From sequence record MK373792.1: a stretch of 64,000 nt of DNA; one strand, written 5' to 3'. Shown piece after piece: positions 730 through 64,000 of the stretch. This DNA comes from Escherichia phage vB_EcoS_VAH1. Below the pieces are notes generated by a model that was not told the DNA's origin, did no database searches, and was given only the letters and a program-made list of their open reading frames with translations. The position numbers and the translations under genes were made by a program. The first letter of the stretch is position 1. Each line of letters begins with the position of its first letter.

Positions 730-2202
730 ATGACCTTGTTTAACGTGCAAGCTGTAGTGTTGAAGATGCTTCTAGCTTCCGAACAGAAGCAAATAGCATT
801 GGAAACATTCTCAAAACTGCATAAAGATCATTTTAATGACGCTTTCTCCTCAATTTACCAAGCCGTCCAGAATTATTATAAAAAATATAACACAATGCCG
901 TCCATTGACGCACTTATGCTTGAAGCTAATAGGAACGCCCGCCTTTCTCAAGCTCTAGTCGTCTTAGCTAACACTCAAATTCCAGAAGTGAGCATGGAAC
1001 AGGCACTTGAAGTCCTAGAGGCCGAATATACACAGGATTTATTCCTGAAGCTTCTAGAAACAGACGTGCTTCAAGATTTAACAATGCTGGATCAGGGAGA
1101 AATTCTCAACCGAGTTGCCTCCCTTCACTTAAAATTAGAAGAGAAAGTAACGAATACTGGAAAAGTATTCAACGCAGATAACATGCGTATTTTCCAGAGA
1201 GAAGAAGATACCAAACTGAACTTAATCGCTCTTGGTATTTGTAATGAGTTCGACGCTCAAATCGGTTTAGCTCGCACAGAAACGTTACTGCTTGGTGGTT
1301 GGCGTGGTACTGGTAAATCCATTATCTGTTCAAACATACAGGTTCAGCAATATTTGAATGGGGATATTGCTCCATACTTCTCAATTGAGATGAAAGAACA
1401 TGAAGTATTTAGACGTAATCTAGCCATGTTAGCTGGTGTATCAGCATTAGCAATGCGTAATAATACTCTAGAAGGTGCAGCTCTGTTGAGATTAGCCAGA
1501 ACTAGAGCTAGAATGTTTAATGGTGGTGAAGAGCTTTTCGACAACTTCGTTAAACAGTATACAATGGCTAAGATGAGTGATTTCTACGATATGGAGAGTA
1601 AGCTAATAGAGGGATATGAACTACATACTCCTATGATTATCGTTTATGACCCTGAACTGTCCATTACAACAGTTGACGTAGAATTAAATAAATTAGTTGC
1701 TAGATATGGTGATAAAGTTACAGTAGCTCTACTTGACTATATTAACCAAACCCGACTTCCAGACTCTAAAACCATTGATATGTATGACTGGAAAGAACAG
1801 ATGGTTGTTAGCTCGTCTTTCAAATCTATCTGCCAGAAACATAACGTGGCTGGTGTAGCTCCTTACCAGATCGATCAAGATGGTAGAACACGTATGTCAA
1901 AGGGTATTCTTGATTCCGCAGATATGGCTGCTAATCTTAATGCTGCAAAAGCTGATAATGGTCAAGGTGCTATTATGTTTGACTTCGTTAAGACTCGTTC
2001 TTCTGATAGCGTGAAGTTTATGCCTAAAATGAACTGGGAAACCTTGCGGATGGATAACACTACCAACCTAGCAATGGAAGATATATCTCAAATGGAAGCT
2101 GAGTTCATTATCCCTATTGAGAAGGATAAGCCGGCTCAACCTAAACGTGCTAAGAAAGACAAAACTGAAAATTCAACAGGTGAACAGGCCAGCGATATAT
2201 GA
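730..2202 (+). CDS. DnaB-like replicative DNA helicase
   Basis: Walker A-like GGWRGTGKS and DnaB-like N-terminal domain. The ORF-track start at 679 lies inside the terminator hairpin; ATG at 730 follows the RBS AAGGAGA. Confidence 0.7.
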   Translation: MTLFNVQAVVLKMLLASEQKQIALETFSKLHKDHFNDAFSSIYQAVQNYYKKYNTMPSIDALMLEANRNARLSQALVVLANTQIPEVSMEQALEVLEAEYTQDLFLKLLETDVLQDLTMLDQGEILNRVASLHLKLEEKVTNTGKVFNADNMRIFQREEDTKLNLIALGICNEFDAQIGLARTETLLLGGWRGTGKSIICSNIQVQQYLNGDIAPYFSIEMKEHEVFRRNLAMLAGVSALAMRNNTLEGAALLRLARTRARMFNGGEELFDNFVKQYTMAKMSDFYDMESKLIEGYELHTPMIIVYDPELSITTVDVELNKLVARYGDKVTVALLDYINQTRLPDSKTIDMYDWKEQMVVSSSFKSICQKHNVAGVAPYQIDQDGRTRMSKGILDSADMAANLNAAKADNGQGAIMFDFVKTRSSDSVKFMPKMNWETLRMDNTTNLAMEDISQMEAEFIIPIEKDKPAQPKRAKKDKTENSTGEQASDI

Positions 2203-2732
2203 TAACACAGGAAAGGCTAAAAGAGTTATTTGATTACTCCCCAGGAACTGGGGAGTTTACTAGAAAAGTATCTAGAGGTAATCAGAAAGCTGGTAGTATA
2301 GCTGGTTCTTTAAGAAAAGATGATTATATATGTATATGGGTAGATGGAAAGCCTTACTATGCGCATCAACTAGCTTTTCTCTATATGGAAGGTTATTTAC
2401 CTGAAGAAGTAGACCATATAAACCGTATACGAAGTGATAATCGTTGGGTTAACCTTAAAGATTCTTCTCACCAAGAGAATAGCAGGAATAAAGCAGCTAA
2501 AAGTAAATCAGGGTATATAGGAGTTAGTTGGAATAAACAAAGGCAAAAATGGCAAGTTCAACTAAGAGATACCAATAAAAAGAAAATATTCGGTGGATAT
2601 TTTGAGTACCAGAATTTAGAATCAGCCGTAGATAAGATTAATAAGCTACGATTACAATTTCATGGGGAAAATGCTATTCAAGAAATATTCGACCCGTCTA
2701 ATTATCCTGCATTAGAGGAGATAAATTCATGA
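2199..2732 (+). CDS. HNH homing endonuclease (MITQERLKEL family, AP2-like C-terminal domain)
   Basis: YAHQLAFLYMEGY...VDHINRIRSDNRWVNL HNH motif. Paralog of 9787..10263 and 42044..42541. ATGA start/stop overlap with the upstream gene. Confidence 0.8.
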   Translation: MITQERLKELFDYSPGTGEFTRKVSRGNQKAGSIAGSLRKDDYICIWVDGKPYYAHQLAFLYMEGYLPEEVDHINRIRSDNRWVNLKDSSHQENSRNKAAKSKSGYIGVSWNKQRQKWQVQLRDTNKKKIFGGYFEYQNLESAVDKINKLRLQFHGENAIQEIFDPSNYPALEEINS

Positions 2733-6636: not shown

Positions 6637-7126
6637 TTTCAAATTGCCCGTATATGCTTTACGGGCATTTGTATCAATTGAGCAAGAAGGTGATTATTCC
6701 GTAATTACAACAAGATATAATAAATATGTGCTAGATAACAGGAAGTTGCCTGGTACTTTTTCTCAACGTAGGCTTATTCTATTTGAGAAACGGAAAGAAT
6801 TACCATACAAGCTCTATCCTATTAGAGGTAGAATATCAATGTTGTCTCAATTAGTTGGGTCAAAGCGTAGCCAATTTATAGATTCTGATGGAAATCTTAT
6901 TAACTGGAAGAAAACTACGTTCTATGATGTTGTCACCTCTAAAGTTTTGCATTCAGCTAGAATTTATAACGGAAAATACCAATGCTATGTAGCTAAAGTT
7001 CCATATCCATTTGTATTATCCTATGTTCCAGCTTATATAAGCTATATTCTGGTAAATAATAGCCCTGTTATTTATCAAGTCCATCAAGAGGAGCCTGAAA
7101 TTCCTAGACTTAGAATAAAATTATGA
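6629..7126 (+). CDS. hypothetical protein
   Basis: ORF overlapping the polymerase stop; no recognisable motifs. Confidence 0.4.
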   Translation: MLNFKLPVYALRAFVSIEQEGDYSVITTRYNKYVLDNRKLPGTFSQRRLILFEKRKELPYKLYPIRGRISMLSQLVGSKRSQFIDSDGNLINWKKTTFYDVVTSKVLHSARIYNGKYQCYVAKVPYPFVLSYVPAYISYILVNNSPVIYQVHQEEPEIPRLRIKL

Positions 7127-7275
7127 AGGTTGTTATATCTAATAAAGCCTATTTCAAGCCCGATGATGAACTTTGGGATTATTGTAGTAAGCAAACCACT
7201 TATCACATAGAGACAATGACTAGTAAATACCCTATTATGTATAAGAATAGTGGTGTTGTTGCCCAAAGAGATTAA
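7123..7275 (+). CDS. N-terminal fragment of SF2 DNA helicase (frame 1 of 3)
   Basis: ATG at 7123; 50 codons ending just inside the start of the next helicase ORF in another frame. Confidence 0.4.
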   Translation: MKVVISNKAYFKPDDELWDYCSKQTTYHIETMTSKYPIMYKNSGVVAQRD

Positions 7276-7702
7276 GTGGATTCCTATTACGCGTCTGGAC
7301 TTATTAGATGCTAAAGGAATAAAATACGAATTAGTCGATAAACGCACATTAGCTCCAGTAGATATACCAAAACCTGAGTTCAAGCTGCGTGAAGAAGACC
7401 AGCTCCCAATATATAAAGAGTGTGATGATACCTGTATTATTAATGGTAAGCCTGGATTTGGTAAAACTATCCTAGCCCTTGCACTTGCGTATAAATTTGG
7501 CCAGAAAACTTTGGTAATCTGTACAAATACATCCATACGTGAAATGTGGGCGGCAGAAGTTCGTAAATGGTTTGGGTTTGAACCAGGCATCATAGGTTCT
7601 GGGAAGTACAATATTGATCCACCAATTGTAGTCAGCAATATTCAAACAGTAAATAAACATGCGAATAATCTTTCTAAAGTATTCGGTACTGTTTATAGTT
7701 GA
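7250..7702 (+). CDS. SF2 ATP-dependent DNA helicase, Walker A segment (frameshifted gene)
   Basis: Walker A GKPGFGKT. Ends ...KVFGTVYS* immediately before the helicase motif II in the next frame. Confidence 0.7.
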   Translation: MVLLPKEIKWIPITRLDLLDAKGIKYELVDKRTLAPVDIPKPEFKLREEDQLPIYKECDDTCIINGKPGFGKTILALALAYKFGQKTLVICTNTSIREMWAAEVRKWFGFEPGIIGSGKYNIDPPIVVSNIQTVNKHANNLSKVFGTVYS

Positions 7703-8477
7703 TGAAGTTCACCATTGTGTGGCTACAACTTTCACTAATTTCCTAGAAATATCATGTGCTCGCTATAAAATTGGACTATCCGGTACACTAAAACGAAAAG
7801 ATGGTTTACAAGTTATGTTCAAAGATTTCTTTGGATATAAGATATTTAGCCCGCCGGTTAATAATACTGTTGCACCTACAATCCATAGGTACTCCGTGCC
7901 TGTTGAGCTATCAGGAAACCAAAACGTGCCGTGGGCATTACGTGCTAACGATGTGTATAATCATCCTGAATATCGAGAGACTATTATAAACCTAGCACAT
8001 TTATATGTGAATATGGGGCATAAAGTACTCATTGTAAGTGATAGAACAGAGTTAATCCAAACAGTACTAGAAGCTCTTACGCAGCGGGGTGTTACAACAT
8101 ATGAAATTATAGGGGCAACCCACTTAGATGACCGATTAAAAATTCAGGAAGATATAGCAAAAGGTGGGCCTTGTGTACTTGCAGCAGCTCAAAGTATCTT
8201 CTCTGAAGGTATTTCTCTTAATGAGCTATCTTGTTTAATAATGGGAAGCCTCATTAATAATGAATCTCTCATTGAACAGCTTGCAGGCCGTGTTCAACGT
8301 ATTGTCGATGGTAAACTCGACCCTATTGTTGTAGATCTAATTATGAAAGGTGGCACTGGACTAAGACAGGCTTCTGGACGTATGGCAGTATATCGTAACA
8401 ACGGGTGGAAAACTATTACTATGACCCCGGAGAAAGCAGTTCAATTAGCTAAAATTGCATTTGGCAACAGCTCATAA
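7659..8477 (+). CDS. SF2 ATP-dependent DNA helicase, DExH and C-terminal domain (frameshifted gene)
   Basis: LFIVDEVHH (motif II), LSGTLKRKDG, and C-terminal helicase domain with QLAGRVQR. Confidence 0.7.
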   Translation: MRIIFLKYSVLFIVDEVHHCVATTFTNFLEISCARYKIGLSGTLKRKDGLQVMFKDFFGYKIFSPPVNNTVAPTIHRYSVPVELSGNQNVPWALRANDVYNHPEYRETIINLAHLYVNMGHKVLIVSDRTELIQTVLEALTQRGVTTYEIIGATHLDDRLKIQEDIAKGGPCVLAAAQSIFSEGISLNELSCLIMGSLINNESLIEQLAGRVQRIVDGKLDPIVVDLIMKGGTGLRQASGRMAVYRNNGWKTITMTPEKAVQLAKIAFGNSS

Positions 8478-8489: not shown

Positions 8490-8562
8490 ATATACATAAA
8501 TTTGAGAGAGAGAAAGTTTCGGATTGATAAGAAAGTCCGAAGCAGAAAAATAAAAATTTTAG

Positions 8563-9786: not shown

Positions 9787-10263
9787 ATGATTACACAAGA
9801 GCGATTAAAAGAGCTGTTAGATTATAATCCTGAGACTGGAGTATTTACCTGGAAAGTATCTCGTGGTAGAGTTTCAAAAGGATCTGTAGCTGGAACAGCA
9901 GTATCAGTAGGGAATAGGTACACCCGCTGGGAGATTCGAGTTGAAGGAAAAAGATATAAGGCGCATCAGTTAGCATTTCTATACGTTCATGGTTATATTC
10001 CACCTGAGATTGATCATGAAGATAGGAATCCATTGAATAATGCAATACTTAACCTAATAGACTCTTCAAAGTCTCGTAATCAATTAAATAAGAATAAAAA
10101 CTTCGGTAAAGAAACACCAAAAGGAGTCTTTGTAAAAGCCTCTACTGGAAGATACTTCGTACAGATTCAAGGAAAGCACTACGGCTACTTTGATGACGTA
10201 GAACAGGCCAGAACTGTTGCTAATGAGGTATATGATAGGTTGTTAAATGAGAATACTGTTTAG
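9787..10263 (+). CDS. HNH homing endonuclease (MITQERLKEL family)
   Basis: N-terminus MITQERLKELLDYNPETGVFTWKVSRG; HNH motif YKAHQLAFLYVHGYIPPEIDHEDRNPLNN. Confidence 0.8.
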   Translation: MITQERLKELLDYNPETGVFTWKVSRGRVSKGSVAGTAVSVGNRYTRWEIRVEGKRYKAHQLAFLYVHGYIPPEIDHEDRNPLNNAILNLIDSSKSRNQLNKNKNFGKETPKGVFVKASTGRYFVQIQGKHYGYFDDVEQARTVANEVYDRLLNENTV

Positions 10264-24268: not shown

Positions 24269-27200
24269 TTAAGAATTACCAAGAGATTTCAGGGTGGTTC
24301 CATTCTCATTAAGAGCCAGTTCCACGGCATCTCTGAAAGCAGTACTATTATTCGATGCAAAATCTCTGAAGCTTGCTGCATCCATAGTGCTGATATTCAG
24401 GATAATAGGTCTACCAGAAGAGGACCTTGATCCTTCGGAAAGCTGATCATTAGGCGTAGCTTTCATAGGAACCATAGGAGTAATTACCTCGGTACCGTGC
24501 TCACCCATTTGATAGCTTACTCCAGGATACATCATACCGCCTTCCGCACGTGGAACAAAGGAGTTAGCATTACCGATACCTTTATCACCACGTAGATAGG
24601 ATAATTCTCCTGAGCTAGCCTGCATAGATACATCAACGTTCTTCTGTCGTTCACCTAGGGTTAAATACTGAGTAGTATCTGCTCCAGAGTCAGCGATAGA
24701 AGACATACCAGATGCGGAAGATGCCTGAGCAAGAGCTAGTGCACCTGCCAAACCTGCCGCCACCATTAGAGGAATAGAGAACGGATATGGTACAGCTGTT
24801 GCTGCTTGCATTACTGCTACTGCTGTCTGAATGATAATCTGTTTCTTAGCTGCATCCTGTTGAATTTTAAGCTTTTCAGCTTCTAATTTCTTCAGTTTAG
24901 CTTTAGATGCCTCAGATTTACCATCACGCTTCTGTTCTGCGGCAATAGCCTGATCAATTGCACTAACCTGCTGACTAGTACTGTATTGAATCATAGAAGC
25001 CACAGTTTGCATACCAGAAGCAATCATAGACGTAGTATCTAAAGATCCCTGAGAGAATTGAATCATAGCATTAGTTAAATTACCCATGCTTTGAGCCACA
25101 GCGGTTGCTTCGGAATTTAATTCAGATAACTTAGAGATCGCCTGGTCATAAGAAGCCATTCTATTTTGCATATCAGCAAAATCTTTATCTTCTCCGATTA
25201 ACCCAGTAGTAGGAGTATAAGTAGCCCCAACAGAAGATCCTACCTGTTGCTGCATTTGACTTTCTCTCTGCTTTCTGAGTTGCTCTAGAGCAGCAACAGT
25301 TTTATAAATCTCATTACGATACTTAAGCTCTTCTTCCGTATTACCCTTAGATAGTTCCAGCTGTTGCTGCAGAATGGATAGTCTTTCCGTAAGAATTTGG
25401 GATTGGCCAGTAACATTTCTTTGTGTTTGGCTGACTTCTAGTGCATCCATGAGAGCTGATACATGTGAGGCAGTTGCTTGTTTTTCTGCTTCCCATAGCT
25501 CTCTGCTTATTTGTGCTTGCGCACGTCTAGACTGTTCCGCCTCTTTTTGTTTATCTGCCTGTTTTGTATACCATTCGTACTTCTCTTTCTCTATAGTTAG
25601 TTCTAGTTTTAGCTGAGCTAATCTATATTGAGTAGTAGTCATAGTACGGTCATTCAGAAGAGCTATCTCACGATCTACACCAAGAATTTTATCTGTGTAA
25701 TCCTTAACCTTCTTCTGAGCTTCCATACCCTGATTGGTAAGTTTAAGTTTCTCCAGCTGAATTTTTTCAATTTCTTTCTCAACAGCTTTATTTCCCTGGT
25801 TTGTTTGAAGAACACGTCGTAAAGCAGCTTCTTGCTCTTCTAACTGTTGCAACTCTAAACGTCTACCAGCTTCCTGAGCTTTTTCCTTATCCTTAGTTTG
25901 ATTATACACATCAGCTATTTTCTGTTGAACTGCTAACTGATTTTTAGTTTCATTACCAGTTAGTTTAACATACTCAGATAGAGCCTGAGAAGCAGTTTTC
26001 ATCTCAGATAACGTATTATAGCCTAAGTTAAGATTTTTAACGTACTCATCAGCACTTTTACCTGTTCCTATAGATAGGGACTCTATATTTTTTATAACAG
26101 CTACTAAAGTAGCGCTAGTTTTAGCCGCGGTATCTGTACTCTGAGCAACGTTCTGCATATCATTAGCTAAGTCACCAGCTGTTTTCTTAGTTTGATTATA
26201 CGCTTTCTGTTCTTCGGTTAGTCCTTTTAGTACTGCAGAGTTAAAATCATATACAGCACCAGGATCAGTAGTATCCCTATGTAGGTTAATCTGTTTTTGG
26301 AATTCTGGGTTAGCTTTTGCAGCGGCAGCACCCGCAGCTTGATAGGCTGACTTCCAAGCATTAAGGTTTTCAGTAGAGTCATCAACTTCTTTGCTTAACC
26401 TTGCTATCTGTAGTCCCATAGCTGCGGTTTCCTCTACGAACTTTTTATTAGCTTCGGAAGAACCTATGCGCATCCCTCCTACTTCAAATCCCCCAGCAGC
26501 TAACCCAACAGGCATTCCCTCACCCACCAACCTAATAGCGGCGGCAGTACTAGCGTCTGCTTGGGACATTCGTTTATCGAACTCAGATTTTAGCTTATTA
26601 CGCTTATCAAGGGATTCCCTATACATATCTAGAGCTTTATTATACCCTTCTTCAGAAGCGGCTAAACTTAAAGCAACAGCACCAACGTTGGTAGGATCTA
26701 TCTGTCTATTAGTCTTTTCTTGGGCTCTAGCTGCTTCAGCAGATACAGAAGCCTGAGAAGTATAGAATACCGTATTGATGGCATCGATTACTGGTCCTAA
26801 ATACTTAGCAGCAGCCTGCTGAATCTTTCTCAGTGCGGCATCAGCATTAGCGGCAAATTGCTCCCATGGAGTAGCTCGCAGAACTTCATCTAGATACCCA
26901 AAACGTCTGGTAGATTCTGCTATAACAGCATTGGCATACGCCTGCTGTTTCTGGAAAGTAGTAAGACTATTAATGTTATAAGTTATACCTGTGTTAGCAG
27001 CATTTAGCTGTTTAACATAGTCAGCATATGCGTCATTAAGACGAATAGTAACACCAAGTTCATCCAGAAGTTCTATTTCCTGTTTTGATACACCCTTGAT
27101 TACACGATTAAGCGCATCAGTCATATCAACACCAAGAACAGCAGCAGCACGACGAGCTACTAGACCAAATTTATTAAGTTGTTCAGCATCAAATCCGTAC

Positions 27201-37327: not shown

Positions 37328-37840
37328 TTATTTACCGCGGGAAATAGAGTAAATTCCATAGCGCAGCGCATCACAAAGGTGAGAGTTAGCATCATGACGT
37401 GGTTTTTCACGTGATAATTTCTCTTCACCTTCTTGGAAATCCCACTTATAGTTCTGCAATGCATGGATTAGTGAGGAACATGAAGCATCTACAATAATCT
37501 TGCCCTGCTGGAATAGCGCTTGCAAGCATGCTAGACCATCTAGGACAGATTTTTTAGCTGGAGCTGATGCAATTTCGTGCTCGTAAGCTAAGTCCTGGCG
37601 GAACTGAGCGGCGGCAGAGTCAACAAAAATACGATCAACTTTATAACGATCTATACAGTGCTGAATATAAGCAGCATGCTGAGCTGTAGTTTTTTCAGCC
37701 TGCTGGTATTCTTCTAACACGTAGTAGGTATCCGTATCGTAATGATATTTAATAGTAAGAACTGCTGTAGGATCACGATAACCAACGTCAATACCAAGCA
37801 ACGTTTCGAATGCTTCATCATCTTTAAAGAAGTGACGCAT
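37328..37840 (-). CDS. terminase large subunit, C-terminal nuclease domain (frame open up to about 37941)
   Basis: Terminase nuclease region. The frame continues upstream as NYFRQEYEADFSVFEGQIFDTFNAIDHV... to a stop adjacent to the frameshift site. Confidence 0.8.
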   Translation of the reverse strand: MRHFFKDDEAFETLLGIDVGYRDPTAVLTIKYHYDTDTYYVLEEYQQAEKTTAQHAAYIQHCIDRYKVDRIFVDSAAAQFRQDLAYEHEIASAPAKKSVLDGLACLQALFQQGKIIVDASCSSLIHALQNYKWDFQEGEEKLSREKPRHDANSHLCDALRYGIYSISRGK

Positions 37841-38643
37841 ACCTTTGAGATCTTTAACATGATCAATAGCATTAAAGGTATCAAAGATCTGGCCTTCGAA
37901 TACAGAGAAGTCAGCCTCGTATTCTTGGCGGAAGTAGTTTTACTAACTGTACGACGTGCTTCCTCAATGTCATTCAGGTCAGCACGTGGGTTATCACGAT
38001 ATGTACCATGAATAGATACCCAGTTAGGCAACGTATCATCAAATCCGTAGGCGTAAAATTCTTTAAACCAGTTACCCCCACGAGGGGTGGAAATAAATAG
38101 AGCTTTAGAATTAGGTTTATCTAGAGTAGGACGCAGCTGAACCCTGAAGGCATCACCACCCACATCGGAAATTGCCGCCTCGTCAAAGATGATAAAATCA
38201 TATGAACGTCCAACTGCGGAGTCAGCCTGAGCCGCGGAAGCTAGTTTAAATAGAGAACCATTAGCTAACTCAATCTCTTTATCTTTAGCGTTTTCACGTT
38301 CGGTTTGTAGGCCATACTTCTTAATAAGACCACGAATCTGAGACCATCCGATATTGGCCAGTGAGTAGTTAGGGGCAACTACTAGCACCTTCACATTAGG
38401 TTCCAGCAATTTTAGGAACCCAAGTGTATACGCTATAAAAGATTTACCTACACGGCGTGATACACACGCCGTTACAAAACGATGTCTAGGGTCTTCTAGC
38501 GCATTGATAATTGCTATTTGAGGGCCGTTAGGTGTAATACCCTCTTGTGCTAGTATTCCGGAAACGGGTAAACGAAAGAAACGCTTATCTATTCCGAAAT
38601 CAATAACATCTACTGTATTAACATAAGGTCTTGATACTTCCAT
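37714..38643 (-). CDS. terminase large subunit, N-terminal ATPase domain (frameshifted gene)
   Basis: Walker A-like SRRVGKS and Walker B YDFIIFDEAA. After ...DIEEARRTVSK the frame turns into low-complexity garbage. Confidence 0.85.
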   Translation of the reverse strand: MEVSRPYVNTVDVIDFGIDKRFFRLPVSGILAQEGITPNGPQIAIINALEDPRHRFVTACVSRRVGKSFIAYTLGFLKLLEPNVKVLVVAPNYSLANIGWSQIRGLIKKYGLQTERENAKDKEIELANGSLFKLASAAQADSAVGRSYDFIIFDEAAISDVGGDAFRVQLRPTLDKPNSKALFISTPRGGNWFKEFYAYGFDDTLPNWVSIHGTYRDNPRADLNDIEEARRTVSKTTSAKNTRLTSLYSKARSLIPLMLLIMLKISKVCVTSLKMMKHSKRCLVLTLVIVILQQFLLLNIITIRIPTTC

Positions 38644-39135: not shown

Positions 39136-40665
39136 TTAGGTAAGGCGTTGAACTGTTACTCTTAATCTAGGTAGGAAAACTGCGCTACCCAAACTCACGT
39201 GCATAACTACTCCTAACTCTACATTTCCATTTCCTAGATTTTTAACGGTATATATAAAACTGTTTCTACTAAGAGCATTGTTAGGTGTATATCTAAAAGC
39301 AGATGTAGTATGAAAAGGTACTAGATAACCCACAGGTAGCGTTAAAATCTGGTGGAATATTGCATCTCCATTACTATAACTATGCGCTTTTCTTCCTTGT
39401 ACTTGAAATACACCATTATTCCATGTATTAGCTGGAACACCCGCACAATTAAGATTACCTGATATAACTTCAGTAGTAAGAATTACGGTAGCATTTCCGC
39501 CTGGTATACCTAGCCCAATAGTTGATAAACCAACGTATCTATCCCCAGTTCCTGGATAGTGGGGTGTAATATCATCTCCCATATAAGAACTACCTACATT
39601 TCCACTAAAAAGTCGAAGTGGAACTGCTGATGGTCCCCAAACAATCCCATGTTCATTACCAATAGTATTATTATTTGAGTTTACATACCATTGTTTACCG
39701 GCCCCAAATTTATAAATACTAATTTGAGATTTAGCCCCTCCGTAATCTACAGGAGACCACAACCCTCCATTACTAGACCCTACAAGTTCACACCTTGCAG
39801 TGGTATCCCCAAAAACCCCAGTATACGCTGCGTTATTCCCTATATACTCCATATCAGGACGGTAACCTAGGTTACCAAAAGCATTCTGATTTATAAATTT
39901 ATACCCGGTATTAGGGAGACTTACCCCTTTAATTATGAAATTAGAAGGAGATATAAGAATATCAGAACCAGTAAAGGGATTGCCTGAAATACTCATACCT
40001 CCATTCGAGTACCTTAAATTAAGAACATACCAAATAACCTTAGTAGGAGTTATATTATACCAGTCCTGTATTACCGTAGGATTGCCAGACTGATTAGCCA
40101 AATTAGTAGTAGATCCCCTACAAACAAATCTGTTCCCACCGTCGTGGTACATAGTATTTACACTACCTGGGAGCCCTTGCCTAACCCCACCATACCCACG
40201 TATATTAGAATTACAAACATAAAACCAATCATGCCCTCTATGCGCTGCTCCTAGAGGTGACATCCATCCGGGATCCCAATAGTACGGGTTATTCCCATCT
40301 ACAGGTACTGTACTACTGTTAGTAGGAAACCCTAATTGTGCAAAAGCTTCTGCAACAGTAACACCTACAGGAGCTCCCGCACCGGGCCTAACTATACCAT
40401 GGTAGGTACTATGTAATGTAGTACCCCCTGTGCCACTCCTAGATATAGATTCTTCATGCCCTAGAGAGGGATTATAATTATAAGTTCCAGATGCTAGACT
40501 ATTACCAAAGGCAAATCCACTGGTTTGAGAAACACTAGCAAAAGATCTAAAGGGATCTGCCTGGGTGGCAACTATAGTTTGACCAACTTTACTCTGAGTA
40601 CCATTAAGAAAAGCTCTGTGAGTACCATTTATCTCAATAGCAGTTAGTAACTCTACCTGGGTCAT
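39136..40665 (-). CDS. receptor-binding tail protein (T5 pb5-like), C-terminal part
   Basis: 509-aa Gly/Asn/Thr/Ser-rich ORF next to a divergent llp-like lipoprotein gene; overlaps the preceding 85-aa ORF by 32 nt in another frame. Confidence 0.55.
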
Positions 40666-40891
40666 TAGATTTAATATTTATTATGTCAGAGGGCATTTGA
40701 CATACAAAAAACCCATTCCCGGCATTACCTAATGCAGCCTCATAAGTACCATCAACTAGGACAAATGGCATATCACTATGAAAAATACTATTGGCATTTG
40801 GACTATAGTGACGATTAATGTCACCACCAGATTCAGTATTTAAAGATAGTACGGTCTTACCATCGCTATATTTTCCAGCGAAAAAACCCAT
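40634..40891 (-). CDS. receptor-binding tail protein, N-terminal 85-aa fragment
   Basis: Strong RBS AGGAGA before the ATG at 40889-40891; ends in frame conflict with 39136..40665. Confidence 0.5.
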   Translation of the reverse strand: MGFFAGKYSDGKTVLSLNTESGGDINRHYSPNANSIFHSDMPFVLVDGTYEAALGNAGNGFFVCQMPSDIINIKSNDPGRVTNCY

Positions 40892-41846: not shown

Positions 41847-42057
41847 TATTATAATTGCTTTTATTATCGGGGTACTTGCGGGAATTTTCGGAATGACTGC
41901 GGCTATTAACAAGCATCGTAAGTATACTGCGGAAGTATCGCGGGAGATTGCGGAAAGGGAGCGGAAGTTTGACGAGAAACGTGCGGAGTTTGAGCGGGAG
42001 TGGAATGATGGTTCAAGAAGTTCTCGGAGGAGATTCAAGATAGATGGCAAATCATAA
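41839..42057 (+). CDS. small membrane protein (72 aa)
   Basis: N-terminal TM helix and a charged C-terminal tail. Confidence 0.5.
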   Translation: MFSIIIAFIIGVLAGIFGMTAAINKHRKYTAEVSREIAERERKFDEKRAEFEREWNDGSRSSRRRFKIDGKS

Positions 42058-42541
42058 ACCTCTACTTCCCTTAGCAGAATACCAGAAGAAATTTGATTAT
42101 GACCCTGAAACCGGTATGTTTACTTGGAATTCAGGGAGTCGTAAAGGTAAACCAGCAGGTAGTAGAAATAGTTCAGGAATATCCCTATCAATGGGTAGTA
42201 ATGGGCTATATAAGGCCCATCGGGTAGCGTATCTATACATGACAGGAGAAGACCCGGGTGAATTTCTCATTGATCACAAAGATCAAGACCCCTTCAACAA
42301 TAGGTGGAATAACTTACGTAAAGCAACAAATGCAGAGAATGGAAAAAACTCTTCGGGATGGAAGAATGAGTCTACAGGGGTTAAGGGAGTATATAAACGC
42401 GAGGAGGGAAAGTTCGAAGCAAAACTACGTGTAAATGGTAATAGAATTACCATAGGAACTTTTAAAACTCTTGAGCAGGCTGAAAAAGAACTTAGAAAAG
42501 CCAGGGAGCATTACCACGGTGAGTTTGCAAACCATAATTAA
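42044..42541 (+). CDS. HNH homing endonuclease
   Basis: PETGMFTWNSGSRKGKPAGS...YKAHRVAYLYMTGEDPGEFLIDHKDQDPFNNRWNNL; same family as 2199..2732 and 9787..10263. Confidence 0.8.
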   Translation: MANHKPLLPLAEYQKKFDYDPETGMFTWNSGSRKGKPAGSRNSSGISLSMGSNGLYKAHRVAYLYMTGEDPGEFLIDHKDQDPFNNRWNNLRKATNAENGKNSSGWKNESTGVKGVYKREEGKFEAKLRVNGNRITIGTFKTLEQAEKELRKAREHYHGEFANHN

Positions 42542-47715: not shown

Positions 47716-48234
47716 TTAATTGACAATTCCAAATTCAGCTTTTTTAGTTTCTACCCATAATAATAACTCTTGTAAATCATAACCTGATTTACTAACACTT
47801 TTGTTACTAGTAGGATCTTTAACTATAGCGCGCAAATAGTTTCTTCCGTTATTATCAACTCTAGAACCATTATAATAGATATGCTTAGGCAACTTATTAG
47901 CACGCTTATAATCTTTCTTGTTATTCATATTCTGCTTATGATCTACTAAGCGAAGATTATTAATGTTATTATTAGCACGGTTACGATCATTATGATCGAT
48001 TGTTAGATTGCTATCAATCTCACCATTAAATAATACCCATATTATTCTATGCACTGCGTATTGTTCGCCTGCTAACTTTACTCGATAGTAACCTGTGTTA
48101 CTATAATGCCCTGCAATATCACCCACCTTACTATTACCTTTCTGTACTTTCCACCTTAGAAATGATGGGGATGTTTCATCATAATAAAAGTTATCATTAG
48201 CAAGCGAATAATCTATATCTTTAAATAGACCCAT
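47716..48234 (-). CDS. HNH homing endonuclease
   Basis: YAVHRIIWVLFNGEIDSNLTIDHNDRNRANNNINNLRL HNH motif; AP2-like C-terminal domain. Confidence 0.75.
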   Translation of the reverse strand: MGLFKDIDYSLANDNFYYDETSPSFLRWKVQKGNSKVGDIAGHYSNTGYYRVKLAGEQYAVHRIIWVLFNGEIDSNLTIDHNDRNRANNNINNLRLVDHKQNMNNKKDYKRANKLPKHIYYNGSRVDNNGRNYLRAIVKDPTSNKSVSKSGYDLQELLLWVETKKAEFGIVN

Positions 48235-57769: not shown

Positions 57770-58096
57770 TCATGGGAGACGCCATACATAATTAGCTGTC
57801 TGTAGAACCTTAGGTGTGTCATCATGGTACATTACTACAGACTTTGGTGAATAACTATCAGCTAGTTCTTTACGAATCATCTTACATTCTTCACCAGTAT
57901 CGATATTTTTAACTATCACTTTCATATTAAGAGGTGTTAATACAGAAAGCGGTTTCCAGGAGTCCTCAATCTCAATTCCTACCTTTTTCTCGATTACCGT
58001 GAGAACTTCTAGTGTATCATCTGGAATACTAATATTATTATTCACAAACTGTAATATCTCATGTAAGGTATTTAATTCATTAAAATTAAGCTTCAT
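57770..58096 (-). CDS. hypothetical protein
   Basis: 108-aa ORF. Confidence 0.5.
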   Translation of the reverse strand: MKLNFNELNTLHEILQFVNNNISIPDDTLEVLTVIEKKVGIEIEDSWKPLSVLTPLNMKVIVKNIDTGEECKMIRKELADSYSPKSVVMYHDDTPKVLQTANYVWRLP

Positions 58097-58301
58097 CTTT
58101 AAGAATATCCTCTACCATATCACAGGACTGTTGCAATTCGTCAGCAATACGTTTAATATCGGTTTTTGTTACTTTACCAACTAACATCACCAGTAACATA
58201 GAAAAGATAATAAGTGGAACTGGAATAACAAATAAAGCTACCTTAACAACATTCTTTGGCGTCCATGTGTGGTACTTGGTAACCAGTACACCAAACCACA
58301 A
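58086..58301 (-). CDS. small membrane protein
   Basis: 71 aa with a TM segment. Confidence 0.4.
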   Translation of the reverse strand: MWFGVLVTKYHTWTPKNVVKVALFVIPVPLIIFSMLLVMLVGKVTKTDIKRIADELQQSCDMVEDILKDEA

Positions 58302-58336
58302 TCAAATAAAACGCTAGAATAAACATCATCATTTTT

Positions 58337-58612
58337 TTAATCTCCGTAATTATCTGAGCACGCATCATCACTTTTTGGTAATTTTGTATTCCCAGCTATT
58401 GCTTCAATATTGTTTAGTTTTTCTTTTAGAATATCTGAGCGTCTCTGTGCTAGTTCAATATCTTGTTCTTGTTCTATTAAGCGGCAGTGAAGTCCATCAT
58501 TAGTAATAAGCATACTTTCCATGTTTTTTCGTGCGTTTACAATCCCAATAACTCCACCAATCGCTACTAGTGTAGTAAGAACTAGTAACCCAATAAGAAT
58601 TTCTGTAATCAT
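58337..58612 (-). CDS. small membrane protein
   Basis: 91 aa; N-terminal TM helix. Confidence 0.45.
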   Translation of the reverse strand: MITEILIGLLVLTTLVAIGGVIGIVNARKNMESMLITNDGLHCRLIEQEQDIELAQRRSDILKEKLNNIEAIAGNTKLPKSDDACSDNYGD

Positions 58613-59148
58613 TTATTTAATTCCTCTAAAGTAGGTAAGGGTTTTGTATGATCAAAAGTTTCTATAACAGCGTTAGGCCCATGTAGTTCTAAACGTAGTT
58701 CATTAGCTCTTTGAACTGCCAACTCTAAATCTAGATACCTAAAGTAGCCTCCGTGTACTGTAATGCTTTCGGCGCTTCTGGCCTGGACTCTCCATTGTTG
58801 TCGATCTTTTTTCCAGGTAACTCCTAAGTATCCCCGAATTAGATTGAGCGATTCTGCTACGATTATTCTCTTGGGACGTACAATCTTTTAAATTACACCA
58901 TTATTATCTTTTCTTATATTATTTAAGTGGTGTACTAGATTTGGAATATACCCCTCCATGTACAAAAAAGCTAACCTATGGGCTGCATATCTTTTTCTAT
59001 TTATTCCAATAAATATATATAACCATCCTTATCAGGACTACCAGCAATACTACCTGCTTTACCTCGCCCTCTACTGACTTTCCTTATAAATTCGCCCGTT
59101 TCCGGGCGGTATTCAAATAGCTCTTTTAATCTTTCTTGTGTTATCATT
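58613..59148 (-). pseudogene. degenerate HNH homing endonuclease (MITQERLKEL family) with multiple frameshifts/stops
   Basis: Minus-strand translation from ATG 59146-59148 gives MITQERLKELFEYRPETGEFIRKVSRGRGKAGSIAGS... then a stop; HNH-like pieces (AHRLAFLYMEGYIPNLVHH, KDRQQWRVQ..., ...LELHGPNAV) continue in other frames. Confidence 0.6.
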
Positions 59149-59374
59149 TTTTCTTTAATTGCTTAACTTCACGCTCAAAGCTAGCCGCTCGTCGTTCTGC
59201 CACTGCTTGATGCTCCTTAGCAAAGCGTGCCTCTTGTTTTGCTAAGTTAAAGGCCATAGCGTTCTTGTTAAGAGAATCGTACATCTTCTTCATCGCCGGA
59301 ATAGACATTTTCATCAGTTGCCCCTCAAATCCTTGCATATCGAGGAGAATTGCCAGAACGTTAGCCATTTTCAT
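59144..59374 (-). CDS. hypothetical protein
   Basis: 76-aa ORF. Confidence 0.45.
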   Translation of the reverse strand: MKMANVLAILLDMQGFEGQLMKMSIPAMKKMYDSLNKNAMAFNLAKQEARFAKEHQAVAERRAASFEREVKQLKKK

Positions 59375-59471
59375 TTTTAGTCATGTTTTCCATTAGAATT
59401 TCCTCTCTCATTAATTTATGAACTTATTATACAGAATTTTAAGGCTTAAAGCAACTGAATTTTTTAATTAC

Positions 59472-59903
59472 TTACCAATCGTTAACAACACCAGAGAACT
59501 CAGAAGCAAAAACTTTTTCAAATTTTTCTGCAATTTCAGGATGATCTTTGCAGATCAGCTCAATGCATGCTTCTGGAGTCATTCCTTCATCTTCAGGATC
59601 ACCATAGTATTTATCCCAAAGATCATCGGGAATGATATGCTCTGCCAAATCTTGGAAAGAGATTAACTGATAACGTTCTGCCTCCTCAGCGATAAGAATT
59701 TCGCACAGATCTTTATCTATATCGCTACGATAATCCGCAATTAATAAGGCATTGCAAGCATGACATTCCCAGACCATCAAACGTTCAGAGATAGGATTAG
59801 ACTTATCCTGAACGTAAGACTGGAACAAGGTTCGGAAAGTTGCCTTAACTTGTTCAAACTTATCTGCTGCTGCGAAAACTAGAGCTTTATCAACTTTGTT
59901 CAT
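59472..59903 (-). CDS. hypothetical acidic protein
   Basis: 143-aa ORF. Confidence 0.5.
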   Translation of the reverse strand: MNKVDKALVFAAADKFEQVKATFRTLFQSYVQDKSNPISERLMVWECHACNALLIADYRSDIDKDLCEILIAEEAERYQLISFQDLAEHIIPDDLWDKYYGDPEDEGMTPEACIELICKDHPEIAEKFEKVFASEFSGVVNDW

Positions 59904-60070
59904 TTTGATTCCTTCTCATCAATTTATAAAGTAATTATACAGAAACTTAAGCATTTTAGCAAATAAAACTTTCAATTAAAATGCCTAATCCTGTGCCAAT
60001 AGCAATACAAATGATTATAAGTATTGCTATCGCTTGTATGCTTCGTTTAATAATAGCCTCAGCTATATAC

Positions 60071-60665
60071 TTAGACATTTATATCGCCACGTAATACAGC
60101 AGCTACATCTTCCCCTATTTGTAATACTTCGCCAGTAGTACAATTAACTACTCTATCATAGCTAGTAAACTTACCAGACACAATATCCTCTAGTGGAATT
60201 GGAGTTTTACTCATTTCAAATGAGACATTAATATAACGTGGATCACGTAAAGAAGTAGTATGTACATGTCCGTGAATATTTAGTTTTTGCCACGAAGTTC
60301 ATTAGGGTGCAAAGGGCAGTGAGATAGCCAAAACTTTTTGCCACCTCCAGTCTGTTTGCCTAGAGCTTGAATATCGTCATAAACTTCCGCTAAGTCCCTA
60401 ATACTCAGTCCTTGACGCTCCGCATCATGATTACCCATAATGAGTTGATTAGGGACATTGGATAAACCGACTTTAATTTGGCCAGACCTTCACGACCTAC
60501 TGCAATATCTCCTAGCAAAATAAGTTTTGTTCGTTTACCAATATGCTTGGATAAAGTATCTAGAATATACTCATCGTGCTCTTTCATGTTCTTAAACCAC
60601 GGACGGAAACGTAGTGCTCCGGGGTGGTCTAAGTGCAAGTCTGACCAGAATTTAACCTTCATCAC
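60071..60665 (-). CDS. calcineurin-like metallophosphoesterase, interrupted by two apparent frameshifts
   Basis: Frame 1 (60405..60665) has SDLHLDH...LLGDIAVGREG; frame 2 has MGNHDAERQGL; frame 3 has IHGHVHTTS... running to the stop at 60071-60073. Confidence 0.65.
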
Positions 60666-60682
60666 TTACTCCTTTTTTTGTA

Positions 60683-60952
60683 TTAAATTATATCAACCCA
60701 GGTAGTTAATACTCTAGTTTTAAACTCCTCGGGAGTCTCTCCTTCCTTAAGGTCTACCTCATTAAGGTAGGTAGTAAGCCTTGTTTCTATCTCTATTTCA
60801 GCAGGAGAATTAAAACAAAAATTGACTGCTATTCCAGAATATATTACTCCGGTATCTCCTTTGACGAAAGCATTAACTAATGCTCTCCAACGAAGGGCAT
60901 CAATACGCATTGCTCGTAATTCTTCTTGTACTTCTTTCATTCTATCATTCAT
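60683..60952 (-). CDS. hypothetical protein
   Basis: 89-aa ORF. Confidence 0.45.
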   Translation of the reverse strand: MNDRMKEVQEELRAMRIDALRWRALVNAFVKGDTGVIYSGIAVNFCFNSPAEIEIETRLTTYLNEVDLKEGETPEEFKTRVLTTWVDII

Positions 60953-61022
60953 TAAAGAATCCTCTGTACACCACAGCTATCTTCGAAGCGTGGTAAATGT
61001 TGTGATTTTCCCAGTTTCATCA

Positions 61023-61826
61023 TTAACTTGCGCAACCGTCAACTGCCCGTTGAAAAACACCGCCAGTATCAAGATAAACACGGTTCTGGTATAAAATCGG
61101 GTAAGGTACTCCAGTATGCCCGTGAAACACGAAATCTACCCCTTTAACTTCTGGCACTTCTACCATGTATTTCTCTTTAAACCCTGCATAACGCTGGAAA
61201 TATGAGTGTTCTTCACCATTTTTAGATAAGTGAAAACCTATTTCTTGGATTACATCTCGATCCCATAAGTATGGTTCAACATGGTATCCAGGATGGTCAT
61301 GTGTGGGTCTTCCTTAGATGCTTCTACTTGTGCAATAAGGTTATCCCATACTGGGGTTTCTACTTCGTTACCACATTCTTTGTACGTAAAAGGTACACCA
61401 CCATGAACAACACCATACTTTTTACCACGATGCAATACAGTCAGAAATACTGGCATTTTTTCAGCCATGTCTTCAGCAATATTTTTAATGGTATCTGCAT
61501 CTAGTTCATTCATAGCCCACATACCACCATTATACATCCAGTTAGCCCAATCTCCCACAATCATAAATTGGTCATGATTACCTCGGACACTGATAAAGCG
61601 TGGATTATACAGGAATTTGGAAAACTTGTAGGTTCTGCGTGCCTCGATCAATTAAATCTCCCACGCATACAACACAATCTTTCTTGCCGTTATAGCCAGC
61701 TAATTGTAGTGCATCTTCTAGTAAATCGTTACATCCATGAATATCACCAACGAAAAACAAGTTGGCGTCATCCGGCACTACTAGAGTTTTATGTACATTA
61801 AATTCTTTTTTCATAATTATTCCCAA
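61023..61826 (-). CDS. Ser/Thr protein phosphatase (PPP family, lambda-PPase-like), interrupted by two apparent frameshifts
   Basis: GDIHGC and GDLIDRG in 61605..61826; GNHD and VVHGG in 61250..61651; FVFHGHT in a third frame ending at about 61023. Confidence 0.7.
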
Positions 61827-62155
61827 ATAACAGTTAAAATAGTTGTGCCATAATCATTAGATAGCTGGAGAGTATAACCCTCTTTATAGAGGGCTTTTAT
61901 AGCTTCATAACTAATTTCATCACGATTAAACTGTACAAAACCCCCAATCTCCACAGAAGAAACTATTCTCTTTTAACATACTTATATGGTTTCTTTCTGC
62001 TCTTGAGAAGAGCAGCTCTATTAACTCTAGCTAAATGTTTTGCTTGCTCTGCTAACATTTAATCCTCCTATCAATCTATATAAATAGTATACCAAAATTT
62101 TTAGCAAAAAGCAAGTAAAATAAAAGCCTGATCCGCTAAGATCAGGCTTGGTTTA

Positions 62156-62455
62156 TTAATCCTCTGGATTATCGTCTAGGAAATTTTTAATAGCTTCGTG
62201 CATAGTTTCTTTACGAAGCTGACGTCCAACCAAAATATGATTAGCTTCTACTCGACCATTAGGTAAGCGATCCGCTAGAACTACTACAGGAACAGCTCTT
62301 ACTCCGAACTTCTGCATTAATTCTGTATTATCAGTCTCTTTGTGGACTTCCAAATTATAGTCATTGACTACTTTATCAAATACTACTGGCTCGAAAAGAG
62401 CACAAGGACGACACGTGGAACCTTTTAATAAATAAATAACTTTGCTCATATACAC
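62156..62455 (-). CDS. glutaredoxin/thioredoxin-fold protein (NrdH-like)
   Basis: CxxC motif CRPC near the N-terminus; about 95 aa. Confidence 0.6.
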   Translation of the reverse strand: MYMSKVIYLLKGSTCRPCALFEPVVFDKVVNDYNLEVHKETDNTELMQKFGVRAVPVVVLADRLPNGRVEANHILVGRQLRKETMHEAIKNFLDDNPED

Positions 62456-62560
62456 TCCTATTTTACTTGTTAAGCTCTTCTAAATCTGGTATATATCCAA
62501 GAAACTCCTCAATTAAAGCGTACTCCCCAGCAATCTCCTGTCTAGACTTATTCGCTAAGT

Positions 62561-62996
62561 CTACTGCAGAGCTAAGTCTTCATAATTGAAGATTCCTTTC
62601 ATACGTTTTCGGCCTGTTTCATCCGTAATTTGAACTCTCCATTTCTGCCTATCTTTAGCCCACATAACATTTGCATATCCGGATTTGGATTTTATGCTTT
62701 TATTACGACAATTTTGTGGTTTAGATGCAGAACGTAAATTTTTCCATCGGTTATTTTGTGGATTTCTATCTATGTGATCCACAAATTCAGGTATATATCC
62801 TTCCATATATATAGGCCCATCTATGGGCTCCCTGCCTCTCCCCTTCCCACCATTATCATTATGTAATCATTGTTGTACAGGGTTCCAGCTTCCATTCCCC
62901 TCTTTACATACTGATTATTACCATCTATCTTCCAGGTAAACACACCCGTTTCCGGGTTATAATCTAGTAATTCCTTTAATCTTTCTTGTGTTATCA
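62561..62996 (-). CDS. HNH homing endonuclease (MITQERLKEL family), apparently frameshifted
   Basis: GTG start at 62994-62996 gives VITQERLKELLDYNPETGVFTWKIDG... then a stop; the C-terminal HNH part YMEGYIPEFVDHIDRNPQNNRWKNL... is in another frame (62561..62806). Confidence 0.6.
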
Positions 62997-63003
62997 CAAT
63001 TTA

Positions 63004-63210
63004 TTAATGGCCTCCAAGAAGTTTTTTCATGCACCTAACAGTTGCAGTGCTGAGATCTAGAGTAGTTCCTAAACATTCTGTTAATGCTGCCTGGTAAGGC
63101 GCTTTTAAACGCCCTTCAGGGACTTCTACCTTTTTGTAGGTTTTATTCTTTACTTTATCCAACATAGCTTCAAGAACATTGAGAGGCAATTTCGCACCCT
63201 CAATATTCAC
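63004..63210 (-). CDS. hypothetical small protein
   Basis: 68-aa ORF with GTG/ATG start overlapping the upstream stop by 11 nt. Confidence 0.4.
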   Translation of the reverse strand: MNIEGAKLPLNVLEAMLDKVKNKTYKKVEVPEGRLKAPYQAALTECLGTTLDLSTATVRCMKKLLGGH

Positions 63211-63397
63211 ACCACATTTCGGTCAGCATGTTATTAAGATCAATACGAGTAAGTTTCTTGCCTTTAGACATAGTAGTTCCTGCCCTCTTCTCAAGTTTTT
63301 TACGCTCTGGTGAATCGAGGTCACGTAATGCGATGTTCAACTCATATGGAGCCATGTTATAATGTTCCGCCATTTGAGTGTAGAAACGATCAGACAT
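63200..63397 (-). CDS. hypothetical small protein
   Basis: 65-aa ORF. Confidence 0.4.
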   Translation of the reverse strand: MSDRFYTQMAEHYNMAPYELNIALRDLDSPERKKLEKRAGTTMSKGKKLTRIDLNNMLTEMWCEY

Positions 63398-63472
63398 AAT
63401 ATATACCTCTCTTAACTAATTTATGTATATATTATATAATAACTAGGGCTAAAAGTCAACTACTTTTTTATC

Positions 63473-63889
63473 TTAATCTACTACATGTATAAATCTTTTT
63501 CTAACTAGATACATAGTTATTGGGTAAATTGAGTACATAAGTATCGGGGAGAAAAGGGTGAAATACGCTGTAACTCCCCCAGCTAACATCAAAGGTATTA
63601 ATGCTAGAGTAAGGGCCATAAGAATCATACCGAATGAAACAGCCAAAGCTATGGATATAGGATTCTCTAGTTCCATCCATAACCAACAATATTTCGTATC
63701 TCTATGGCAATTGCATTTACAAACGCCGAATGAACCCATAATTATATACTCTAGTCCGTGAATAACCTTTATTAATAAGCTATTTCGGGTAGTTAATGCA
63801 ATGATAGTAAAGACTATCATTAAAACGAATACTACTAGACTTATTTTCCAGATACCTAGCAGCATCATAGTGAATAGTTCTGCAAACAT
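63473..63889 (-). CDS. integral membrane protein
   Basis: 138 aa with about four hydrophobic helices. Confidence 0.5.
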   Translation of the reverse strand: MFAELFTMMLLGIWKISLVVFVLMIVFTIIALTTRNSLLIKVIHGLEYIIMGSFGVCKCNCHRDTKYCWLWMELENPISIALAVSFGMILMALTLALIPLMLAGGVTAYFTLFSPILMYSIYPITMYLVRKRFIHVVD

Positions 63890-64000
63890 GGCTTTCTCCT
63901 ATCTTCAAAAATTTATTAAAGCCCCCTTTGCCTAAAAAGGCGGGAATATTCCCGCCTAAGTTATTAATTAAACTAGTTCGACATGACCGCCATCATAGGT

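Follow-up and report, generated by a model that had tools for sequence, protein, structure and literature searches.

The locus analyzed here raises the question of whether a phage has lost two of its phosphatases or whether only its sequence record suggests so. In a stretch of 64,000 nucleotides from Escherichia phage vB_EcoS_VAH1 (record MK373792.1; the whole stretch is referred to as the window), two neighboring metallophosphoesterase genes, termed gene A and gene B, were found to carry their catalytic motifs in the right order but in different reading frames. The frames are disrupted by seven indels, for which we infer a technical origin: they are very probably consensus or assembly errors in two ordinary, conserved early genes and not mutations borne by the phage. 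The coordinates of all features are compiled in Table 1.

Table 1. Features discussed in this study, with their positions in the window; indels are described on the plus strand unless indicated otherwise
Feature	Position	Strand	Description
Gene A, calcineurin-like phosphoesterase	60071..60662	-	Orthologue of slur09 SLUR09_00011, 196 aa, PHROG 547
Gene A indel 1	60459	plus-strand description	2-nt deletion, TGTG to TG; private with respect to 6 aligned relatives
Gene A indel 2	60464-60466	plus-strand description	+A, AA to AAA; private with respect to 6 aligned relatives
Gene A indel 3	60284..60288	plus-strand description	+TT, T3 to T5
Small 95-aa gene between A and B	60662..60952	-	PHROG 14979
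Gene B, lambda-PPase/NinI-like Ser/Thr protein phosphatase (putative)	60952..61814	-	T5.035 orthologue, 287 aa, 32.6 kDa
Gene B indel 1	between 61620 and 61621	plus-strand description	-CT, outside any repeat; private with respect to 8 relatives
Gene B indel 2	61299..61305 (~61300)	plus-strand description	+TG, TGTG to TGTGTG; original frame restored
Gene B indel 3	61053..61057	plus-strand description	+A, A4 to A5
Gene B indel 4	60982..60990 (~60985)	coding strand	-GA versus the T5-type allele, CGAGAAG to CGAAG
Indel hot spot	58200..64000		13-14 private frame-breaking events; extends to the window end
D10-like helicase	7123-8474	+	Private +C at 7262 (CC to CCC) and +T at 7692 (TT to TTT)
Large terminase subunit	37331-38643	-	Private 1-nt deletion at 37938, T5 to T4 run
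Receptor-binding tail protein (pb5/oad-like)	39136-40891	-	Private -TA at 40648, TATA to TA
HNH endonuclease gene, frame-broken	58612-59147	-	Inside the hot spot (58.2-64 kb)
HNH endonuclease gene, frame-broken	62466-62997	-	Inside the hot spot (58.2-64 kb)
HNH (HNH_3) paralogue, intact	2199-2732		Outside the hot spot
HNH (HNH_3) paralogue, intact	9787-10263		Outside the hot spot
HNH (HNH_3) paralogue, intact	42044-42541		Outside the hot spot
HNH (HNH_3) paralogue, intact	47716-48234		Outside the hot spot
81-aa gene, frame-broken	61817-62058	-	In the hot spot; T5.036 orthologue, -1 at ~61969
134/143-aa gene, frame-broken	63016-63397		In the hot spot
80-aa gene, frame-broken	~58092-58330		Listed with the broken hot-spot genes

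BLAST searches of positions 59900-62100 and of two 24-kb pieces of the window against a phage collection identified it as part of a T5-like phage (Tequintavirus, Demerecviridae), and no identical record was found among the matches in this collection. The region of both phosphatase genes shares ~95% identity with Escherichia phage slur09, NBEco001, NBSal005, and Es2; elsewhere in the window, the identity to T5-like relatives is about 90-95%. The gene order is that of T5: replication genes are followed by those for tail and head, by the terminase and receptor-binding protein genes, by the pre-early genes of the terminal repeat, and then by the early genes. Genes A and B are situated among the latter in a synteny that is conserved in Tequintavirus genomes, and their flanking genes (a T5.033-like gene of 143 aa, a T5.036-like gene of 81 aa, and a thioredoxin gene) are the same in the Tequintavirus relatives. 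At the homologous positions, slur09, NBEco001, APCEc03, Es2, and T5 possess an intact ORF for gene A and an intact 287-aa ORF for gene B. Six further loci were compared, most of which also have intact ORFs for both genes; some of them carry a T5-type gene A allele of 163-173 aa, and one has a gene B of 283 aa.

Two observations were made in passing on the surroundings of these genes and on other length differences in the window. The 81-aa gene upstream of gene B, which is itself frame-broken, is labelled "major head protein" in several RefSeq records, a designation that is implausible for an early protein of this size. Furthermore, in-frame (3n) insertions with respect to slur09 are present at 26467 (+27 nt, tape measure), 19007 (+18), 35340 (+9), and 46401 (+9). 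They are located in tape-measure and tail genes, those at 26467 and 46401 are private with respect to both covering references, and all four look like natural length variants and not like errors.

The corrected proteins of both genes were obtained by projecting the window onto the slur09 reading frames, and frames are given as the coordinate mod 3. Gene A was found at 60071..60665, as proposed in an initial annotation made from the sequence alone, with the annotated ATG start at 60662 and the stop at 60071. Its ordered motifs are DLHLDH, LLGD, GNHD, SHCPLH, and GHVH, and this order is complete only after the frames have been joined. Three-frame translation placed DLHLDH and GD in frame 2 (~60662-60466), GNHD and SHCPLH in frame 0 (~60458-60289), and GHVH in frame 1 (~60283-60071), so that the longest product from the true start, in the sequence as written, comprises ~66 correct residues with motifs I and II only. 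The corrected protein is 100% identical to that of slur09. It matched PHROG 547 with an E value of 2e-56 and Pfam Metallophos (PF00149) with 21.7 bits, barely above the gathering cutoff of 21.5. The YfcE-like character that had been suggested for this protein was not confirmed, since it matched neither the YfcE (TIGR00040) nor the Metallophos_2 (PF12850) model; apart from PHROG 547, its best match was the nearest solved structure, Aquifex aq_1665 (PDB 1XM7), at a weak 0.0028.

The metallophosphoesterase motifs of the T5.034/PHROG 547 family (DLHLDH, GD, GNHD, H, and GHVH) are present in gene A. T5.034 comprises 173 aa, whereas gene A comprises 196 aa, and the two are 53% identical. T5.034 adjoins the phosphatase gene in T5, whereas the window type has a 95-aa gene in between. 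The slur09 orthologue SLUR09_00011 is an uninterrupted ORF, whereas gene A of the window is cut by three indels. Comparison of positions 60071-60952 of the window with positions 7917-8438 of the T5 locus (L014) revealed that T5-like phages harbor two phosphoesterase alleles or cassettes: the T5 type, with 173 aa or, in one relative, 163 aa, and the slur09/window type of 196 aa, the latter with an extra gene of 95-99 aa (PHROG 14979) that separates the phosphoesterase from the phosphatase. As the genes flanking the two alleles remain ~94% identical, a module appears to have been exchanged locally. In the window, the 3' end of the 95-aa gene is altered by a +T in a T run (~60673-60679) and a +TA (~60688-60693), and its ORF as written stops early at 60683.

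Gene B extends from an ATG at 61814 to a stop at 60952. The initial annotation had assigned it to 61023..61826, but position 61023 is merely the stop of an out-of-frame read-through, and the real start is this ATG and not the TTG at 61826. The ordered motifs GDIHG, GDLIDRG, GNHD, VHGG, and HGHTG are again complete only after joining of the frames, in this case those of five segments: 61814-61622 (frame 2), 61620-61306 (frame 1), 61299-61058 (frame 2), 61052 to ~60986 (frame 1), and ~60984-60952 (frame 0). The view that each gene is spread over three frames consequently holds for gene A, with three indels and frames that run 2, 0, 1, but not for the anatomy of gene B, with four indels and frames that run 2, 1, 2, 1, 0. 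Within 61023..61826, there are three pieces of gene B but two frames only, and use of the third frame is confined to the final ~10 codons. Motifs I and II (GDIHG and GDLIDRG) and motif V (HGHTG) share one frame because a -2 and a +2 indel cancel each other. As written, the product from the true start consists of 64 correct and 5 out-of-frame residues and contains motifs I and II only.

The corrected gene B protein is about 96% identical to the intact slur09 protein and matched Pfam Metallophos with an E value of 1.7e-16 (61.7 bits, gathering cutoff 21.5). Its proposed likeness to lambda-PPase was borne out by a match to PHROG 246 ("NinI-like", E = 2e-90) and by homology to lambda-PPase itself (PDB 1G5B; phmmer E = 1e-33). 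The matching parts, 17-154 and 220-264, form two blocks that correspond to the N-terminal metal-binding motifs and the C-terminal GHT/DTG region. The T5-type protein has 287 aa, whereas lambda-PPase has 221 aa, and a ~65-residue insertion (~155-219) lies between the blocks in the T5-type protein. Homology across both catalytic blocks argues for a lambda-PPase/NinI-like Ser/Thr phosphatase of the PPP family, which is predicted to share the binuclear-metal hydrolysis mechanism of lambda-PPase. With 94 bits against 326 bits, gene B remained below the cutoff of the NCBIfam models for E. coli PrpA/PrpB, of which it is therefore a relative and not an equivalog, and the YfcE model scored 21.9 bits, under its cutoff of 56.25.

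The closest characterized counterpart is found in T5 itself. T5.035, a NinI-like Ser/Thr phosphatase (YP_006863.1), shares 94% amino acid identity with the frame-corrected gene B protein over all 287 residues, and its location is the same, with T5.036 on the upstream side and the phosphoesterase gene on the downstream side. The full T5.035-like PPP motif set, with the third motif in the form RGNHD, is present in gene B; however, T5.035 is a single ORF, whereas gene B of the window is cut by four indels. The last ~15 codons of gene B (60952-61000) correspond to the T5-type allele (…TTLRED…) while the remainder is closest to slur09/Es2, and this T5-type 3' end is a case of fine-scale mosaicism or recombination inside the gene. 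Given the identities of the corrected proteins to slur09 (A and B) and to T5.035 (B), the broken motif order is not a matter of chance, and both loci are metallophosphoesterase genes with interrupted frames, as had initially been recognized. The C2 mutation of T5, in mutants of which a 90-kDa protein associated with RNA polymerase is missing, has been mapped to a presumed 32-kDa Ser/Thr protein phosphatase (Klimuk et al. 2020, PMC7472727). Since the mass of T5.035, 32.6 kDa, agrees with the size of this ORF, gene B is probably the classical C2 locus of T5, and the tie of T5.035 to late transcription via C2 is indirect (PMC7472727).

Six of the seven indels in genes A and B are 1-2 nt changes within short homopolymer or dinucleotide repeats. 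The first two indels of gene A (60459..60466) together cause a net shift of -1. The fourth indel of gene B resembles a complex replacement when compared with slur09 alone, since the allele present in this patch is that of T5. All seven are missing from every one of the 5-8 aligned relatives (83-95% identity). In short-query BLAST searches, +TT (60284) was compared with 63 phage records, none of which matched at 100%, and the best match was the query minus a 2-nt gap; for +TG (~61300), none of 71 phage records exceeded the 95-99% identity band. Among the matches listed for these two queries (8 of the 71 records for +TG), all span 74 nt for a query of 76 nt. Exact DNA scans with indel-containing 33-41-mers gave no match in viral, metagenome, and genome contig collections; a corrected 31-mer of gene B was also without a match in IMG/VR, so that the exact scan provides no contrast for gene B. 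Exact look-ups of four proteins of the window, namely, two broken fragments (133 aa from gene B and 309 aa from the terminase) and two intact large proteins (the 1016-aa tail fibre and the 1235-aa tape measure), likewise gave no entry in large collections.

Clear differences emerge between the indels and the substitutions of the window. A 5-way alignment shows 21 substitutions that are private to the window, a number similar to the 20-53 of its relatives, but 14 private gap columns versus 0-1 in the relatives. With respect to Es2, positions 60071-60951 contain 11 substitutions but 5 indel events. In the corrected frames, the codon differences to slur09 are 12 synonymous and 0 nonsynonymous for gene A and 35 synonymous and 10 nonsynonymous for gene B, which indicates that selection acted on these frames during practically the whole of the divergence. 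A period of drift long enough to accumulate 3-4 indels per gene should have left many substitutions, most of them nonsynonymous; these are absent, so that purifying selection is intact. Genuine evolutionary pseudogenes were consequently rejected, as selection on genes A and B is not relaxed and every disruption is private.

To place these events in the context of the window, an indel was counted as a private frame-breaking event if all covering references, at least 2 in number, lacked it, if its context was conserved, and if its length was other than 3n. There are 21 such events in the window, 13 of which lie between 58290 and 63907, that is, in the segment of 58.2-64 kb, although this segment makes up 9.7% of the sequence that could be compared (binomial P = 6.5e-9). 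The remaining ones are at 7262, 7692, 8504, 37938, 40648, 46825, 47299, and 52697, and long stretches such as 9-37 kb are essentially free of private frame-breaking indels. The genome-wide indel problem or nonviable sequence invoked by the initial annotation therefore stands as far as private small indels and a broken terminase and helicase are concerned, but not as a uniform spread. Compared with slur09 alone, the window shows 167 gap events, but many of these were rejected as indels of the window, being either compensated pairs in divergent patches or natural variants that other relatives share (for example, 15077 and 18597).

A hot spot rich in slippage targets was considered and rejected. 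Runs of at least 4 nt occur at 17.8 per kb in the hot spot and 15.5 per kb outside, and dinucleotide repeats at 30.7 and 30.5 per kb, respectively; with repeat densities this similar, target availability does not account for the cluster. As to the indel spectrum, ~40% of the events are 2-nt changes, insertions outnumber deletions, and many events lie within runs of just 2-3 nt. This spectrum is not diagnostic of any particular sequencing platform, and the cluster would be explained most simply by a local patch of low coverage or without polishing.

Frame breaks are also present in other genes, as had been noted for the terminase, the helicase, and HNH endonucleases. The D10-like helicase is split into three frames; its slur09 form has 450 aa, and the protein identity is 96-99%. 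Just past this gene, a private +GA was observed in a GA repeat at 8504, which completes a small second cluster of 3 events in 1.25 kb. The parts of the large terminase subunit on either side of the deletion share 100% and 99.5% protein identity with slur09. The T4-run variant of the terminase was found in 0 of 120 phage records and in none of the viral, metagenome, and genome contig collections, whereas the 42-mer with the intact T5 run matched 2 contigs and served as a positive control for the exact scans. The receptor-binding tail protein has 585 aa in APCEc03 and Es2; that of the window shares just 29% identity with its slur09 counterpart, which identifies it as a different receptor-binding allele. 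At least six HNH (HNH_3) homing-endonuclease paralogues are present in the window. The presence of HNH genes varies among the relatives; in slur09, for example, none separates the thioredoxin gene from the gene that follows it. A strictly virulent phage such as T5 has no dormant state during which it could collect several lethal lesions. Private frameshifts in the terminase, the helicase, and the receptor-binding protein consequently imply that a propagating phage does not have the sequence as written; on the basis of established T5 biology, it cannot represent a viable lytic phage.

All of the indirect signs of an artefact that were considered, namely, indels private to one record, an excess of indels over substitutions, and damage to essential genes, were found. 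Genes A and B are ordinary conserved early genes of a virulent T5-like phage with frames interrupted by seven indels of 1-2 nt; these seven would belong to a locally error-rich segment of 58.2-64 kb, and a few further errors would have occurred elsewhere, in the helicase, terminase, and receptor-binding protein genes. Uncorrected consensus errors of the long-read or homopolymer type likewise consist of length changes of 1-2 nt in short homopolymers and dinucleotide repeats, and they likewise are private to one record and split otherwise perfectly conserved essential genes. However, the window differs from such errors in the very short runs (2-3 nt) that many events affect, the share of 2-nt events, the excess of insertions, and the regional clustering. 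The spectrum is odd for a simple homopolymer-error platform, and the strong clustering, although it fits low local coverage, could also reflect a local biological or editing process. In addition, most of the hot-spot genes are small early genes or homing endonucleases that are plausibly dispensable. Some evidence fits the view that the inactivation is real and very recent, in a phage, a subpopulation, or a defective genome with fresh pseudogenes in a local slippage hot spot: the indels are mostly of replication-slippage types, and they are concentrated where these early genes and the HNH genes form a block. We consider this improbable, since the ratio of indels to substitutions, ~0.5, is far above that of the relatives (0-1 private gap columns per 20-53 substitutions), gene A shows no relaxed selection, slippage targets are as dense outside the hot spot as inside, and the frameshifts extend to the terminase, helicase, and receptor-binding protein, which a virulent phage cannot tolerate. 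The C2 locus of T5 was defined through amber mutants, which would make a real four-fold frameshift in gene B even less plausible. The agreement of gene B with the ORF in which the C2 mutation was placed also argues against a real inactivation (PMC7472727). A specific form of such an event, in which both phosphatases, together with two homing endonucleases and several small early genes, have only just been inactivated by a 6-kb slippage hot spot in the early region, is very improbable. If the indels were nevertheless real, they would point to a localized mutagenic process, for example, error-prone repair at cleavage or nick sites of homing endonucleases, and the genes of the hot spot, including both phosphatases and hence the probable C2 locus, would be dispensable.

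The unusually large share of 2-nt events and the strong clustering would also fit a sequence that was altered in silico, simulated, or generated by a model, or a consensus that is chimeric because the lysate was mixed, into which the indels were introduced, as would the lack of any entry for the four proteins looked up and the fine-scale mosaic exemplified by the T5-type 3' end of gene B within a slur09/Es2-like stretch. Mosaicism is normal among T5-like phages, however, the private substitutions and the synonymous-to-nonsynonymous pattern look entirely natural, and most indels follow the repeats around them, in the manner of real slippage or of errors in basecalling, so that an origin of this kind is quite improbable. 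Programmed recoding, by ribosomal frameshifting or transcriptional slippage that restores the full-length phosphatases, is conceivable at those indels that lie within short homopolymer runs (T5, A5, and T7), but its probability is negligible: it would demand 3-4 independent events per gene in +1/-1 and +2/-2 senses, which would be unprecedented, there is no conserved slippery site, and the relatives all encode each phosphatase as one uninterrupted ORF across these sites. Programmed frameshifting was rejected because the orthologues are intact.

Errors in the consensus or assembly being the preferred explanation, the main value of this analysis lies in annotation and quality control. The genes themselves are already known, being the orthologues of T5.034 and T5.035, and the frameshifts very probably do not represent a feature of the phage's biology, so that no new biology is implied. 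Annotation of the sequence at face value would give rise to ~10-15 spurious fragments of genes within 58-64 kb alone, to truncated terminase, helicase, and receptor-binding proteins, and to the false inference of a T5-like phage without its two phosphatases. The recommendation to annotate the corrected proteins is supported by the present data, and the biologically meaningful annotation of this locus consists of the frame-corrected proteins of 196 aa (gene A) and 287 aa (gene B).
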